Shown here: positions 6,536 through 55,829 of the stretch, in pieces
Layout: the number at the start of each line of letters is the position of its first letter
Position numbering within the stretch: the first letter of the stretch is position 1
Translations under genes and position numbers: made by a program
Assembly (NCBI GenBank): GCA_044337105.1
Contig: JBIIOE010000001.1
Span: 16,309-80,308 of the forward strand
Direction of reading: 5' to 3'
Length of the DNA: 64,000 nt
Origin: Bdellovibrionota bacterium
Lineage (GTDB): Bacteria > Bdellovibrionota_C > UBA2361 > OMII01
Notes under the pieces: generated by a model
The model's database searches: none
What the model saw: only the letters and a program-made list of their open reading frames with translations
What the model was told of the DNA's origin: nothing

Positions 6536-6632
6536 GAGAGCATTCTCCAAGCGATAAGTTGTAGAGGATGAGTTCGGCACGCGAGGAGCGTTGTTGCTAG
6601 CGGATGGCAGTACGCTCGTTTTTTTTCTCGGC

Positions 6633-6652
6633 CCTTCGTGGAATCGAGTGGG
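6633..6652. repeat. CTTCGTGGAATCGAGTGGG module (solo)
   Basis: ccttcgtggaatcgagtggg, preceded by a T8 run. Nearly identical to the modules at 2612, 25645, 26211 (reverse complement) and 55564 (reverse complement). Confidence 0.6.
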
Positions 6653-6756
6653 CGGCAACAAGGATAGAGGCAGCGCAAGTACTTATTTTAAGACATAAAT
6701 CGGGCCATTTTTACGTTTTCAAGCTCCCACTAGATCCGTCGATGAGCCTGGAAAAT

Positions 6757-12857: not shown

Positions 12858-13047
12858 TAGAGGGGAAGCGGGGGAAACCTACCCGTCACGAGAAAGTCGA
12901 GGTTGGTTTGATATTCGATTTTCGTGATGTGGAAAACCGCTGGTGTATCCGCTGCGAGACACCGAGGACTTTTCCACATCGCCCAAGTCGGAGAGCGGCC
13001 TAAGATCCGCCTTCGCGGCAGGAAGAAGGGGATTGCCTCGCTTCCTG
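12858..13047. mobile_element. MITE-like element, type 2
   Basis: Left end TAgaggggaagcgggggaaacctaccc, right end ggggattgcctcgcttcctga. The interior cgagaaagtcgaggttggtttgatattcgattttcgtgatgtggaaaacc is shared with copies at 26236 and 54701. Internal hairpin gatgtggaaaa/ttttccacatc. Confidence 0.7.
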
Positions 13048-25144: not shown

Positions 25145-25495
25145 TCAGCTGGCGACCCCGACCTTGTCGAGCGACATTCCCCGACTAAGACCTGTGATGT
25201 TTTCGAGTTTCTCGCAGAACTGGTCAGCTGCGGATTTAGCCTGCTCCTCTGTCCAGCCGACCGCAGTGAGCTCGGAGACGTAGGAGTCCGCGAAGTCGAG
25301 ATAATATTGAATCATCTCGGCATCGTTGGCGATTTCGAAGAATCCCTGGCGTGGCATCATGGGGATATCCTTCACGTGAAATATCTCACGTTGCGAGATA
25401 AGACTGCTAAAATACACCCAAGCATCCCGTGTCAGTAATTGGGCGATGCGCTCCTGGTCCTTTGAAAGCTGCAAACAATACGAAAGCGTATTCAT
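25145..25495 (-). CDS. Hypothetical protein
   Basis: 116-aa ORF, convergent with the ACAD gene. No recognisable motif. Confidence 0.45.
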   Translation of the reverse strand: MNTLSYCLQLSKDQERIAQLLTRDAWVYFSSLISQREIFHVKDIPMMPRQGFFEIANDAEMIQYYLDFADSYVSELTAVGWTEEQAKSAADQFCEKLENITGLSRGMSLDKVGVAS

Positions 25496-25647
25496 AGAGA
25501 TAGTCTCTCGTGTGCTCGTGGGTTTATGGTAGCTGCCCGGATCGACCCCCTTTACGTGAGCGAAGTAGCCGGGACCCTACGACCGAATCCTCTGTATGTA
25601 GGATGCAGTCGACCTTCCTAAGGACGCGAGACAAAATAGGGGTTCAT

Positions 25648-26226
25648 CGTGGAATCGAGTGGGGAGTACCGAGGTCAGGGAGGGCACAAGTCGTTGTTTT
25701 AACTATAAATAGCACCTTTCCACGTGAACGTGCTCGTGCACGTAAACGTGAACGTACCCGAACGAGCAACTTTATCTCTTCGCTCCCGAACTAGAGCAGT
25801 ATGCTCGACTATGAAAAACTAGACGTCTATCGAACGGCGCTTGAGTTCGTCATAACTACGATTGAGATTCGCGATCATCTTCCTAGAGGAAGCGGGGAAC
25901 TCGTAGATCAGTTCAAGCGCGCATCTTTCTCGATAGTGCTCAACATTGCCGAAGGTGCTGGCAGGTTCAAACAGGCAGACAAACAGCGCTATTTCTCAAT
26001 AGCACGGGGTTCCGTCATGGAGTGTGGCGCACTCTTTGACCTGTTAAACGCTCTAAACTATCTCTCCCCCGACGAGTATCGCGCTGGTAAGCGTTTGCTT
26101 ACAAGGATTGCAGCCATGCTTTCCAAGCTATGCCTGCAGCCCGCATGATGCCTGTTTCGGGTACGTTCACGTTTACGCGCACGTTCCCGTGGGGATAACA
26201 CCGAGCCCTACCCACTCGATTTCACG
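25648..26226. mobile_element. Palindromic cassette carrying the four-helix-bundle ORF (rRNA-IVS-like architecture)
   Basis: Outer stem: 25648-25663 cgtggaatcgagtggg pairs with 26211-26226 cccactcgatttcacg (15/16). Inner stem: 25720-25763 pairs with 26154-26192. The reverse complement of the right arm, ccacgggaacgtgcgcgtaaacgtgaacgtacccgaaac, matches ccacgtgaacgtgc[tcgtgc]acgtaaacgtgaacgtacccgaac. The ORF 25801..26148 lies in the loop. Confidence 0.7.
25801..26148 (+). CDS. Four-helix-bundle protein (TIGR02436 / 23S rRNA intervening-sequence protein family, Avd-like)
   Basis: Family hallmarks LVDQFKRASFSIVLNIAEGAGR, DKQRYFSIARGSVMEC and an ~115-aa length. The ORF sits between long inverted repeats. 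Confidence 0.85.
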   Translation: MLDYEKLDVYRTALEFVITTIEIRDHLPRGSGELVDQFKRASFSIVLNIAEGAGRFKQADKQRYFSIARGSVMECGALFDLLNALNYLSPDEYRAGKRLLTRIAAMLSKLCLQPA

Positions 26227-26235
26227 AAGACCCAA

Positions 26236-26352
26236 AATAGGGAAGTAAGGCAAACCCGATCCCTGCTGCGGAAGCGGATCTTGGGTTGCCCTCCGATTTT
26301 TGCGATGTGGAACCATCGAATAGTTTTAGGAACGGCCCCAGCTGCCTTCCTG
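26236..26352. mobile_element. MITE-like element, type 2, degenerate right end
   Basis: TAgggaagtaaggcaaaccc..cggaagcggatcttgggttgccctccgatttttgcgatgtggaacc aligns with the 12858 copy. A possible right terminus, gctgccttcctgcgg, lies inside the 3' end of the BON gene. Confidence 0.5.
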
Positions 26353-26826
26353 CGGCACGCGTTCAACGAGATCCTCGACCCCATGTACCCCCCGCACACG
26401 TCGAATCACCGATACAACCCGTTGCGCCTGGTCCTGTTTTAGTTTTCCCTTCGCAACGACGCGCCCATCCATAACCTCGATCTCGATGGCGCTTGGATGA
26501 AGGAGTACACGTCCTATCTTCGAGCGAATCCTCTCCGCTAGCTTACGGTCATTGACTGGCTCTTCTCCTCGGAGCGCCTTGCGGGTCTCGGCAACTAACC
26601 CCTGAAGATGATTCCGAGCGTTACGGGCCTGCTTTTCAGCGAGCGCAATCGAACGGTTGGCGATGCTGGTAGTCCTATCCCGCGCGATGCCGCGTCTGTA
26701 TGGCCCCAAACGCGGGTCGAGGAAATACATTAGTGCTGCGCCGACCCCCATACCAGTCAACAACGATCCGACCGTCTGGCCTGCCGCGCCTACTACAGTT
26801 CCCTGTTGCTTTGTTCTCCGTTGCAT
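26326..26826 (-). CDS. BON domain-containing protein
   Basis: C-terminal BON pattern SAIEIEVMDGRVVAKGKL..QAQRVVSVIRRVRGVHGVEDLV. N-terminal Gly-rich hydrophobic segment. ATG 26826 has GGAG 5 nt upstream; an alternative GTG lies at 26868. Confidence 0.7.
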   Translation of the reverse strand: MQRRTKQQGTVVGAAGQTVGSLLTGMGVGAALMYFLDPRLGPYRRGIARDRTTSIANRSIALAEKQARNARNHLQGLVAETRKALRGEEPVNDRKLAERIRSKIGRVLLHPSAIEIEVMDGRVVAKGKLKQDQAQRVVSVIRRVRGVHGVEDLVERVPQEGSWGRS

Positions 26827-34754: not shown

Positions 34755-34917
34755 TAGGGAAGCGCGGCAAAACCTACCCCATAGTCTCACTTTTGAAATA
34801 ACCACGTGAACGTGCTCGTGCTCGTAAACGTGAACATACCCGAAAAACTTGAGGTTTTTGTTTCGGGTACGTTTACGTTCACGTGCGAGGAAACATAGGT
34901 TTTGCCTCGCTTCCCTA
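34755..34917. mobile_element. MITE-like element, type 1, containing the 71-nt hairpin module
   Basis: TA-gggaagcgcggcaaaacct...aggttttgcctcgcttccc-TA terminal inverted repeats (1 mismatch). The flanks reconstruct CTAG. The interior hairpin ccacgtgaacgtgctcgtgctcgtaaacgtgaacatacccgaaa/tttcgggtacgtttacgttcacgtgcgagg is homologous to the arms at 25720 and 26154. Confidence 0.75.
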
Positions 34918-40305: not shown

Positions 40306-40708
40306 TGAGGCGCAGCAAAACCGTTGCGGTCCACCCCTGGCTCGTGATTCTGCCGTCTTAAATCAAGATGCGGTGAGAGTTCTGGCTCTATGAGCTGCTT
40401 AGCAACCGATTGACGCTTTCCGGCGGCAGCACGGTGCTCCCTCCAGCCCACGCAGAGTGTGGGGGAGATTTGACCCGTAGGCTCGTTTCAGTCTTTGCAA
40501 ACGAGCTCCCAAGGTGCGTTGTTCCTGGGGAGTATCTAGGAAACTACGTAGGAAACGTCGATAAACTGGATCGAACTTCCGTACGCATAGAGTAAACACG
40601 TAGGTGGATGTCTTAACAGACTACAGTCAGCGTTTGCTCTTCGTTCGGTTGTCTCTTCTCTGCCCGCATTTTCGTGGTGTCACAAAAACAAAAACGAAGG
40701 AGAGACGT

Positions 40709-40864: not shown

Positions 40865-40916
40865 GCCTTTCATCGTGTTCTCTACGCGAGTCGGAACTCG
40901 CCGATGCGCTCGGCCC

Positions 40917-40949
40917 TAGGGAAGGGAGGGGGTTTGCCTCGCTTCCCTA
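40917..40949. mobile_element. Minimal MITE remnant (terminal repeats only)
   Basis: TAgggaagggagggggtttgcctcgcttcccTA. An 11-bp perfect inverted repeat ccctagggaag/cttccctaggg includes the flanks. Confidence 0.6.
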
Positions 40950-41306
40950 GGGGACTTGGGCTTATGAACGCATGAAGGCTGTGAGCCCCGAAGTTTTCTC
41001 GTGCGACGGAAAGCTTCCGGCTCCCGGCACATGCCTGTTCTTACCAATTCCAGACACTGCAGAAAGGATGGTGTCAATTTTTCATCTCCACACAGAGGTG
41101 CAATATCAACCACTTTGCCCAGACAAAGACCGGTATAGACTTGTTTGCGTAAGCTCCTAGCTGTTTGCCCATCTCGGGGCTTTCGGCAGTGCGGTATCCA
41201 TATCAAACCGACATATCAGAGATTGCTGACTATCCTTCCGCGCGTGTCACCTGTAGGCTCTTTGTCGTACCTTCGTTAGAGTACATCATCAATCGGAGAT
41301 ATTATC

Positions 41307-42567: not shown

Positions 42568-42659
42568 GTAAGGAAGCGCGGCAAAACCTACCCCATAGTC
42601 TCACTTTTGAAATAACCACGTGAACGTGCGAGGAAACATAGGTTTTGCCTCGCTTCCCT
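42568..42659. mobile_element. MITE-like element, type 1, lacking the hairpin module
   Basis: Apart from the first TIR base after the TA (a vs g), it is identical to 34755-34917 except for the absence of 71 nt bounded by acgtgc direct repeats. TA flanks both ends. Confidence 0.75.
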
Positions 42660-43426: not shown

Positions 43427-45214
43427 GTGAGCACTATGCAGATTATCGGTCCTCAACCAACTTCAAGCGAACTCCTCTCTGATTTGGGAAGCTTCAGTAA
43501 CGCCCCCAAACGTCGAGTGCTCAACCTGATCACCGGATTACGAGCTGAGGAGCAAGAAGGAGGGCCCCCTAGGCTCGTGGTTGATGTAGGGCCTCTGGCA
43601 CCTGAAAATTACAAGATTGCTGCAAATAGACTGGCCAAGGCCCTTACTGGAGAGCTAACCAAAAACTGCGGCGGTAGGTCTAGCATTGTGGCATCAATAG
43701 ATATCGAGCCGCAGGGGGTAGGGAGGACTGTACCTGCCAACAGACCCGGTCTCGGTATCGACATAGCTCAGCTCGATAACTTTTTGAGCGGCCAACTCGC
43801 TTCGTTGGAGTTATCGCCGCACACAATCACCTTGTTCGAGGTGGGTTTAGATAGCAACAGGTGGATTTTTCTCTCTCTGATGTACTCGAGGGGGCCTCGG
43901 TGTGCCGAGCTTGCATGTCGGCAGCTGAGAGCGGGGCTGAAGGAGCTGTTCGGAGTGCACCTGCGGCTGGTAGCCGCGCCGGAGAGGAACCAGGCGTCGG
44001 CTCTTGCTGGCAGTGGTCTTCATAGTAGTACGCAGTCGAGTGAAGAACCAAATCAGGCTGATTATGGTGTCAGCACGCATCGAGGATTTCGAGCTGGCCG
44101 ACGTGTGGATCGCCCCACGCCCGAAGGGGTTGTTGGGTGGGGAGACGTTTCTTTCACTAGTATCGATGCCGTATGTGCCCAGATACTTGAAGATATGATC
44201 TCCGCAGCTCCGGCTTTCGAGCCGACTCTCGCGGCTGGCGAGCTTACGGATCTGCGAGTGGTCACCCCGTTGCGCATTCCGGGCTTTGAAGCCCTCAGCC
44301 CGGGTGTAACCCTACCTGGCATCGGAGTTCAAGGACTTCTTGCACCGGGAATCGGTCCAGTAGGGACTGGACAAGTCCTGTTAGTCGAGGCCTGTAATGG
44401 CAGAGCATGCGACGTAGACCTCGCCAGTCGGGTAATGTTTGATCTGCCCGCTGGTGCGGAGCTCCGCAGCAGCGGGATAGAGCTGAATGCCGATGAGATG
44501 AAGCTCCACACCCAGCTACAATCTATTCGCGATGCCGCGCGTATTCTCCACGACAGAGATGTGGCTATCGGAGCAGATTTGCCGATTCAAGTAGCACGCG
44601 TGGAACGAGATCCGTCCAAGAGCTTGCGTTTTGTACGAGCGGAGAGAGTTGTTTCCTTGGTCATGAGGTTTATGCAGGAGCAGATCCTCAGATGGCGCGA
44701 TGAATTAGATGAGCCGCCTGCTCTATTGGTATCGCGGCCGAGATTCAAAGATCTGGTATCGGCGGACCGAGTCATTGATAAAGCCGCAGCTCAATTGGCT
44801 CCTTATGGCCAGCTCGGTGTCAACTCTATGCGACTCGAGCCGGCGAGTTTGTTGTGTCCGGAGCATCGCGCGATTATCGTACAAGCACTTATTGCAGGTA
44901 AACATCGCCGAGAGCTGAATTTAATTCCTGGGCTGCTTCACGATGCTTACTGCAATCGCAAGCTGCATCTTTTAGAGCAGGACGAGAGCTCTCTTCCGGG
45001 AGATGCGTTGCACTTGAAGCGCGGTAAGTTCGGGATTGTCAACAACCTCCAGGTTGCGAGCGCGGTCCTCGATTTTCCGCTATTCGATACAGAGCTTTTA
45101 CGCAGAGCTTTTAACGTGAGTGCTCGTCGTAAAAACATCGACGGTGCTAGTGCCACCCTCTTGGGAGGTCTGATTCGAAAGCAGCAGGCGAAATTGCTCG
45201 ATCGCTTGTGGTAA
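43427..45214 (+). CDS. Large hypothetical protein (595 aa), no recognisable domain
   Basis: Uninterrupted 595-aa ORF with ordinary amino-acid composition. I could find no Walker, HExxH, nuclease or other motif. Alternative ATG at 43436. Confidence 0.6.
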   Translation: MSTMQIIGPQPTSSELLSDLGSFSNAPKRRVLNLITGLRAEEQEGGPPRLVVDVGPLAPENYKIAANRLAKALTGELTKNCGGRSSIVASIDIEPQGVGRTVPANRPGLGIDIAQLDNFLSGQLASLELSPHTITLFEVGLDSNRWIFLSLMYSRGPRCAELACRQLRAGLKELFGVHLRLVAAPERNQASALAGSGLHSSTQSSEEPNQADYGVSTHRGFRAGRRVDRPTPEGVVGWGDVSFTSIDAVCAQILEDMISAAPAFEPTLAAGELTDLRVVTPLRIPGFEALSPGVTLPGIGVQGLLAPGIGPVGTGQVLLVEACNGRACDVDLASRVMFDLPAGAELRSSGIELNADEMKLHTQLQSIRDAARILHDRDVAIGADLPIQVARVERDPSKSLRFVRAERVVSLVMRFMQEQILRWRDELDEPPALLVSRPRFKDLVSADRVIDKAAAQLAPYGQLGVNSMRLEPASLLCPEHRAIIVQALIAGKHRRELNLIPGLLHDAYCNRKLHLLEQDESSLPGDALHLKRGKFGIVNNLQVASAVLDFPLFDTELLRRAFNVSARRKNIDGASATLLGGLIRKQQAKLLDRLW

Positions 45215-55488: not shown

Positions 55489-55536
55489 AGCTCGCTGTAT
55501 ATCGGCATCTGCAGCACAAAGTTTCCGGGCTTTTTT

Positions 55537-55579
55537 GTGGAATCGAGAGATCTCTGTTCTCGGCTCGATTCCACGAAGG
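55537..55579. repeat. Hairpin formed by two inverted GTGGAATCGAG modules (cargo-less)
   Basis: gtggaatcgag-16 nt-ctcgattccacgaagg. An 11-bp perfect stem in the radC upstream region. Confidence 0.6.
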
Positions 55580-55829
55580 CCCAGTTTCCGACAGAACCTC
55601 TGTTGCACCGATAGTACACGGCCCTCACATACGGCGATCTCAACCGATTTTTGTTGGAACATCGCCGTTTTTCCGGTGGCTATAGTCTCGCCATGCTCTA
55701 GGAGCTTTGATACCGTGTTGCCTGAGCCCTGATCCTCGTCATTTGACCCACGTAAGCTCGACGGCGCGTACGGTGTGTCAGGCAGGACTCTCAAGATTGA
55801 CAGGTTGTTTTGCTTGCGGAGGTTTTTTC

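Follow-up and report, generated by a model that had tools for sequence, protein, structure and literature searches.

An ISL3-type mobile cassette carrying a PF05635 gene between tandem-repeat arms in Bdellovibrionota

We have analysed a 64,000-nucleotide stretch of Bdellovibrionota DNA (the window) and find that its positions 25641-26233 are, with high probability, a non-autonomous element of the ISL3 family, presumably mobilised in trans, whose sole passenger is a PF05635 gene module bracketed by inverted arms. The locus combines two known kinds of unit, an ISL3 cassette and a gene module of the type found in intervening sequences (IVSs) of 23S rRNA. We found no description in the literature of an ISL3-ended cassette with a PF05635 gene and tandem-repeat arms. 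Both the origin of ORF-bearing 23S IVSs and the function of their S23p/four-helix-bundle protein have been open for about 30 years, and a gene-in-stem module located outside rRNA, within bona fide transposon ends, offers a concrete route for the movement of such modules. The main value of the locus is that it exposes a general architecture, in which the gene is accompanied by tandem-repeat arms.

Results

The element is 593 bp long and is bounded by 24-nt terminal inverted repeats (TIRs) of ISL3 type on the forward strand. The left TIR, GGTTCATCGTGGAATCGAGTGGGG, occupies 25641-25664, and the right TIR, which reads GGGTCTTCGTGAAATCGAGTGGGT in reverse complement, occupies 26210-26233 and matches the left at 20 of 24 positions. 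Homology between copies begins exactly at the first and stops at the second, and the ends match those of elements that encode ISL3 transposases, which identifies the unit as a transposon. The octamer AAAATAGG abuts the element at 25633-25640 and can be read again, directly in the sequence, at 26234-26241, forming an 8-bp target-site duplication. Published ISL3 elements have 24-bp inverted repeats beginning GGCTCTTCG and 8-bp direct repeats (PMC6305408). The initial annotation had described a 16-bp outer stem (25648-25663 / 26211-26226) and had taken it, together with an inner stem, as the two-tier RNase III geometry of an IVS. A repeat does exist there, but its real extent is 26 nt (25641-25666 / 26208-26233, at 85%), and only the inner tier survives from that comparison: the outer tier is the ISL3 TIR pair, a DNA-level signal for a transposase and not the base of an RNase III stem. 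Between the ends the only ORF is that of a 115-aa protein, and no transposase gene was detected in the window by tblastn. On the forward strand, the left spacer (25665-25719) is 51-71% conserved overall among complete copies, and the right spacer (26193-26209) is poorly conserved in most of them (29-88%, mostly below 50%).

Relatives of the element are hosted by a group of freshwater Bdellovibrionota MAGs, three of which contain full or partial copies of the gene at no fewer than 16, 15 and 22 loci, respectively, many of them at contig ends. The contigs that carry close relatives of the protein are mostly very short, and the relative itself is often truncated. When positions 25300-26600 were compared with 80 loci by blastn, similarity always ran from about 25641 to about 26233-26238. 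The copies end sharply (GGCTCATCGTGGAATCGAGTGGGT ... ACCCACTCGATTCCACGAAGAGCC), and the flanks beyond are A/T-rich and unrelated from one copy to another. About ten copies besides that in the window have an 8-bp direct repeat of their own, different at each site: AAAATAGG in the window, AATTGATT at L003, ACAAAAAA at L006, TCTTTCTT at L007, GAAATTTT at L010, ACAAAAAC at L033, TAGAAAAG at L043, ATTTGAAG at L046, TCTAAAAG at L050 and TTTTTTCT at L053. The cassette inserts at A/T-rich sites. Four of these loci (L033, L043, L046 and L050) hold internally deleted copies of 402-458 bp that are also flanked by the 8-bp duplications, and one deletion class, missing 25842-25981, occurs at five or more loci in one MAG with differing flanks. 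The recurrence of this class with different flanks means that ORF-less derivatives spread as well.

Sites without the element were also recovered. When the cassette and one copy of the duplication were removed from L033, the joined flanks aligned across the junction to uninterrupted hairpins of a second repeat family, E3; one such hairpin is found in the window, at 34800-34879. Furthermore, five orthologous BON/116-aa loci in relatives, with the same gene order and BON proteins 73-89% identical, lack the insertion; their spacers measure 164-318 nt, whereas that of the window measures 830 nt, and have neither a TIR nor an arm nor an ORF. Because these spacers are too diverged for a base-exact alignment of the junction, the absence of the element and the length of the spacer were scored. 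The duplicated target sites, the many copies scattered over different loci and the orthologous sites that are empty demonstrate past mobility and bear out the earlier suggestion of a free-living mobile cassette, for which presence or absence in related genomes had been proposed as a check.

A metagenome scan for the core of the TIR returned at least about 20 elements of approximately 1,590 bp, and others of 1,379 bp, with the same ends. These encode one protein each, with DDE_Tnp_ISL3 (PF01610; E ~1e-70), HTH_Tnp_ISL3 and Zn_ribbon_ISL3 domains. One full-length ISL3 element is located on a contig (L192) alongside a 185-bp repeat typical of these MAGs; its transposase carries an internal stop codon, and intact relatives were used for the domain calls. 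No clean duplications were seen around the full-length elements, which lie on short, low-coverage metagenome contigs with possibly chimeric flanks. Two of the contigs (L087 and L184) have only one flank in common. By tblastn, the window and ~0.93 Mb of MAG loci contained neither an ISL3 transposase nor a remnant of one; a search of the MAG loci for an autonomous partner, as TIR pairs 0.8-4 kb apart or multi-copy long ORFs, was negative, and viral contigs gave 0 matches to the TIR. From the identity of the TIRs, we infer that an ISL3 DDE transposase encoded elsewhere would move the cassette in trans.

The passenger gene (25801-26148, forward strand) had been assigned by its motifs to the PF05635/TIGR02436 family, and both profile searches place it there, with scores above the curated cut-offs (PF05635: E 9.8e-25, 87.3 bits against 33.8; TIGR02436: E 2.1e-21, 76.2 bits against 24). 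An AlphaFold2 model of the 115-aa protein as a monomer (42 homologs in the alignment; pLDDT 95.8) has four long helices arranged as an up-down four-helix bundle like those of XCC0516 and BT_0352, with TM scores of 0.92 to XCC0516 (2gsc; rmsd 1.0-1.2) and 0.83 to BT_0352 (2rld). Similarity extends to Avd, the accessory protein of diversity-generating retroelements (DGRs), at TM 0.77-0.80 and 10% identity (4dwl, 8ub7), and the protein gave a weak PHROG match to Avd (E 6.5e-4). All solved relatives in the PDB have five chains (A-E) per entry. No PADLOC defence model matched. Among copies, the ORF, TIRs and arms are more conserved than the spacers, and dN/dS is about 0.13 in a comparison of only 5 intact ORFs. 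On this sequence evidence, the four-helix-bundle gene is judged to be functional cargo under purifying selection.

The gene is enclosed by an inner inverted repeat, which we found where the initial annotation had placed it (25720-25763 / 26154-26192, both arms on the forward strand; 35 nt at 89% complementarity). The left arm reads CC ACGTGA ACGTGC TCGTGC ACGTAA ACGTGA ACGTAC CCGAAC, and the right arm is the complementary hexamer array. The arms had been described as near-perfect apart from a 6-nt bulge; the arms are real, but what looked like a bulge arises because one ACGTGN array has one unit more than the other. The fold of the RNA from 25630 to 26245 has a minimum free energy (MFE) of -231.3 kcal/mol, compared with -187.0 +/- 6.9 for shuffles (z -6.5), and both tiers are paired in the MFE and centroid structures. 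The proposed folding check thus returns a stable predicted helix, a long stem in which the complementary arms pair around the ORF. The 5' leader from the left arm to the ATG (25764-25800, forward strand) contains GAGCAACTTT and TAGNAGTATG, which are conserved among copies, and no Shine-Dalgarno sequence is evident. Within the left spacer, a conserved block, TTGTTTT (25694-25700) ... TATAAAT (25704-25710), persists in diverged copies; among copies this TTGTTTT...GATRAAT block lies about 10 nt upstream of the left arm. The initial annotation had considered a transcript starting at TATAAAT. The sequence is there and is conserved, but a consensus scan recognised no sigma-70-type promoter at this position and no usable -35 element.

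The surroundings are ordinary protein genes, as previously reported: the hypothetical and BON-domain genes are confirmed, and a DUF7683 gene and an acyl-CoA dehydrogenase gene are added to them. An IVS would lie in helix 9, 25 or 45 of a 23S rRNA gene, whereas this module has protein-coding neighbours. Rfam searches agree with the earlier statement that no rRNA is nearby, with no rRNA in the 64 kb and no match at E<=1 within 25500-26400. The sole Rfam match in the 64 kb is a SAM riboswitch at 40357-40474. Similarly, no family of reverse transcriptases appears in the Pfam gene tables, which reach ~10 kb to either side, in line with what had been reported.

The combination of gene and arms is not confined to these MAGs. 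Homologs with 41-52% identity from Haliangiales, Kofleriaceae, Chloroflexota and Solirubrobacteraceae have (CGTGCN)n upstream and its complement downstream, in arms of up to 89 nt (z 8-51). Period-6 arms occur around homologs in Myxococcota, Chloroflexota and Actinomycetota, making four phyla in all. In 156 kb of loci with hexamer homologs, period-6 runs were found only beside the gene (0.1 expected by chance). Plasmid homologs from cultured bacteria (28-37% identity) have 7-mers in Azospirillum, Anabaena and Nostoc and 8-mers in Gemmatirosa. Of 14 genes on contigs of a viral collection (25-44% identity), nine have strong arms (z >=9), four have weaker arms in which at least one side is a 7-mer array, and the last has an array upstream but none downstream. 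Among 27 distant homologs, a non-random sample, 16 have a flanking inverted repeat with z>=8 and the other 11 are without strong arms; among other small ORFs at the same loci the count is 0 of 146. By the inverted-repeat test, two Calothrix loci (L203 and L205) have no arms (z near 0-1), and the repeat at L034 is weak and lacks periodicity (z 4.1).

The period of the unit follows the protein subfamily. It is 6 in all 13 genes of the MLDYEKLDVY type and 7 or 8 in all 17 others, and the similarity of the repeat unit drops as the proteins diverge. Hexamer arms have 4-15 units, and 7- or 8-mer arms about 4-6. In 50 kb of the Anabaena plasmid pANA02 there are three tandem arrays, of which two are heptamer arrays; both lie around the stand-alone gene, and the true DGR avd gene of the same plasmid has no tandem-repeat arms. 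These sequence comparisons show that tandem 6-8-mers upstream, with their complement downstream, recur around stand-alone homologs across phyla and not around DGR Avd, and that the arms belong to the gene and not to the transposon. We could not find this family-wide architecture of gene plus arms described in the literature; searches for a link between S23p/four-helix-bundle genes and tandem or inverted repeats, or for the hexamer sequence, gave only the Coxiella heptamers.

The window also contains an ORF-less hexamer palindrome with a 17-nt loop (34802-34886), which is 95% identical to the left arm over 43 nt. It is the core of an element of the E3 family (34757-34915), a second, MITE-like family with ends GGGAAGCGAGGCAAAAC... 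and TA flanks. ISL3 cassettes have inserted into the A-rich loop of E3 (L004 and L033), and the two families recombine through their shared arms (L004). One E3 copy has an unrelated core.

Discussion

The element shares with ISL3 insertion sequences such as ISArsp7 (IR GGCTCTTCGCGGTTGGTGGTGAAT, 8-bp DR; PMC6305408) a 24-nt TIR starting GGCTCTTCG and an 8-bp duplication, here at A/T-rich sites, and near-identical ends bound elements that encode PF01610 transposases. However, it has no transposase, is only 593 bp long and has only its terminal ~24 nt in common with the full-length elements. TIR-bounded, transposase-less cassettes with passenger genes are already known, for example those carrying qnrD and qnrS2 (PMC3913671, PMC5444012). 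Like these mobile insertion cassettes and like MITEs, the element is short, with TIRs of an IS family, no transposase, a target duplication, multiple copies and deletion derivatives, and is presumably trans-mobilised. It differs from the qnrD/qnrS2 type in its ISL3-type ends and in a PF05635 cargo that has palindromic tandem-repeat arms of its own, and its copy number, in the tens per genome, is closer to a MITE burst than to a rare cassette.

The passenger module resembles the ORF-bearing 23S IVSs of Coxiella burnetii and Leptospira (PMC4990558) in its protein family and in having the ORF in the loop of a long stem. In Coxiella, three to four tandem GACAGAT heptamers lie just upstream of the S23p ORF, and RNase III cuts at the first of these repeats, inside the stem (PMC4990558). 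Tandem short repeats in the arm upstream of the ORF are thus a further point of likeness. The window module differs in that it is outside rRNA, between protein genes and antisense to them, and in that its repeats are hexamers within transposon ends. The origin of IVSs is unresolved, and their descriptions as a 'remnant of transposition' or as a 'mobile element whose ORF serves mobility' are untested ideas (PMC4990558). With DGR Avd (4dwl, 8ub7) the protein shares the four-helix-bundle fold, and the five chains of its relatives agree with the pentamer of the literature; at 10% identity, and with no reverse transcriptase in the Pfam tables for ~10 kb each side, it is nonetheless distinct from Avd.

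What do the arms do? By analogy with Coxiella, they may pair in the transcript and form a stem that RNase III cuts. Such a cut would free the ORF-bearing loop from whatever transcript holds it, which would fit a module that lands in operons or in rRNA. The Anabaena homolog sits between cas6 and cas4. Cleavage by RNase III would not by itself account for arms made of tandem repeats, nor for the conservation of their unit. The mismatches in the arms showed no sense-strand G·U bias when tested (38 vs 36, p 0.9). This and the conservation of the unit sequence across phyla speak against a purely structural role of the RNA and allow for recognition of the sequence itself, for which the oligomeric protein would be the simplest candidate; it could act in addition to RNase III or in its place. 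The lack of an evident canonical promoter or Shine-Dalgarno sequence also counts against the RNA-stem reading. The survey of arms therefore yields two testable hypotheses, excision by RNase III or binding of the protein to the repeats.

In its fuller form, this second hypothesis would make the arms putative recognition sites for a four-helix-bundle oligomer, one unit per subunit as in TRAP, with the stem secondary; gene and arms would constitute a self-recognising selfish or regulatory module, and arrays of that unit without an ORF would count as satellites of the module. We consider this possible but, on balance, doubtful. It would suit the conservation of the unit, beyond mere complementarity, among homologs of 41-52% protein identity, the covariation of period and unit with protein subfamily, and the presence of ~4-6 units in 7- and 8-mer arms where every solved relative has five chains per entry. 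The place of Avd in an RNA-protein complex (8ub7), the lack of RNA strand bias in the mismatches, the ORF-less E3 palindromes of this genome and the Xanthomonas repeats discussed below point the same way. Against it, hexamer arms vary from 4 to 15 units, and neither pANA02 nor the 156 kb from other lineages contains ORF-less arrays. The E3 palindromes could also be taken to mean that the arms are simply the core of an E3-type MITE, with the gene inserted by chance in the A-rich loop; E3 elements have that palindrome without an ORF, ISL3 cassettes do enter E3 loops (L004, L033), and an E3 copy with an unrelated core exists. Yet the period-6 arms of homologs in Myxococcota, Chloroflexota and Actinomycetota have no E3 ends, other subfamilies have 7- or 8-mer arms of their own and the cassette's arms themselves are not surrounded by E3 ends, so that we think this origin very unlikely.

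The stable stem and the purifying selection on the ORF would be compatible with an ordinary host gene that does not move and is regulated through a long 5'/3' stem. Such a gene is contradicted by the target duplications, by dozens of dispersed copies with differing flanks, by deletion derivatives that have spread and by empty orthologous sites, and we regard it as extremely improbable. Finally, the name of the family, the weak PHROG match (E 6.5e-4) and the structural similarity to Avd (TM ~0.78) might suggest a relic, either of a degraded rRNA operon (a leftover 23S IVS) or of a DGR (an Avd without its reverse transcriptase). This we believe to be almost certainly wrong: there is no Rfam rRNA match even at E<=1 and no reverse-transcriptase family in the Pfam tables for ~10 kb on either side, identity to Avd is 10%, and on pANA02 it is the stand-alone gene, not the true avd, that has arms.

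A bolder generalisation, in which our confidence is low, is that stand-alone PF05635 genes form a widespread, so far unrecognised class of self-contained module, in which the pentamer would specifically recognise its own 6-8-mer arrays with one unit for each subunit, the modules would hitch-hike between phyla on transposons, and both 23S IVSs and ORF-less satellites would be included. RAYT/REPIN systems are comparable in that a gene is flanked by inverted copies of a repeat that is also dispersed through the genome, without the gene, as hairpins. The E3 cores, as gene-less dispersed hairpins, are the likeness here. The four-helix-bundle protein differs in that it is not a Y1/HUH transposase and has no known catalytic motif, and ORF-less satellites of its module are seen only in some lineages.

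If the generalisation held, 23S IVSs would be a special case of landing in an rRNA helix, and many dispersed tandem-repeat palindromes would be ORF-less satellites, among them the E3 cores, the GGGAATC pairs of Xanthomonas and, in Geobacter, the paired 'global regulator sites'. More generally, the gene-arm architecture may explain the abundant orphan tandem-repeat palindromes of several genomes. The Xanthomonas gene XCC0516 has four GGGAATC units in tandem across its annotated start, and the genome has ~70 ORF-less inverted pairs of this heptamer (PMC4692102). Geobacter metallireducens has dozens of paired tandem 7-9-mers on opposite strands, often with IS elements between them (PMC2700814). 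No link to PF05635 is drawn in the papers that describe the Coxiella, Xanthomonas and Geobacter repeats (PMC4990558, PMC4692102, PMC2700814). The supplement to the Geobacter study names no four-helix-bundle genes; the elements between its paired sites are of the IS110 and IS481 types (PMC2700814).

Repeat families and possible element remnants in the window and related loci

A second MITE-like family, E3, of approximately 175-184 bp, was found in the window, and its members have the ends GGGAAGCGAGGCAAAAC...GTTTTGCCTCGCTTCCC with TA at either flank. E3 sequences lie at 34757-34915, 42571-42658, 12863-13046, 40916-40950, 2650-2672 and 26238-26258. Their cores vary by copy, and consist of the hexamer palindrome, a reduced core, an unrelated sequence or no core at all, with the two ends back to back. 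In addition, solo sequences resembling the terminal inverted repeats (TIRs) of the ISL3-type cassette (GCCCTTCGTGGAGTCGAGTGGGT and GGCCCTTCGTGGAATCGAGTGGGC), together with a short hairpin of two TIR cores, are present at 2609-2632, 6630-6653 and 55536-55583, and these may be remnants of other cassettes.

Public contigs that carry exactly this locus end inside the element or right beside it (the start of L001, where the break point is the inner arms, and a JGI contig of 10,324 bp from sample 3300059473), consistent with assembler failure at a multi-copy repeat. A further dispersed repeat of approximately 185 bp is characteristic of these Bdellovibrionota MAGs and frequently adjoins cassette copies; it occurs at 1168-1353 of L192, the contig with the ISL3 transposase element, and at more than 15 MAG loci (for example L005 9808-9991, L049, L060 and L078). 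The cassettes of L005 and L007, from different MAGs, have an additional insert of approximately 190 nt in the 5' leader, past the left arm and ahead of the ATG.

Four-helix-bundle genes in other lineages

The four-helix-bundle (4HB) proteins of a Haliangiales MAG (L024; Myxococcota) and a Solirubrobacteraceae MAG (L028; Actinomycetota) are 82% identical and their genes have CGTGCT-type arms in common, a likeness in sequence that suggests recent inter-phylum transfer. A stand-alone 4HB gene with arms of AGGTGAC heptamers is found on plasmid pANA02 of Anabaena sp. 90 (L204/L228, record 44152-44780), co-directional between cas6 and cas4 in a CRISPR-Cas operon of type I-D. Elsewhere pANA02 has a separate diversity-generating retroelement (avd and RT), which lacks heptamer-type arms.

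Finally, the window contains a SAM riboswitch (RF00162) at 40357-40474, scoring 45 bits, barely over the gathering score of 44.4.
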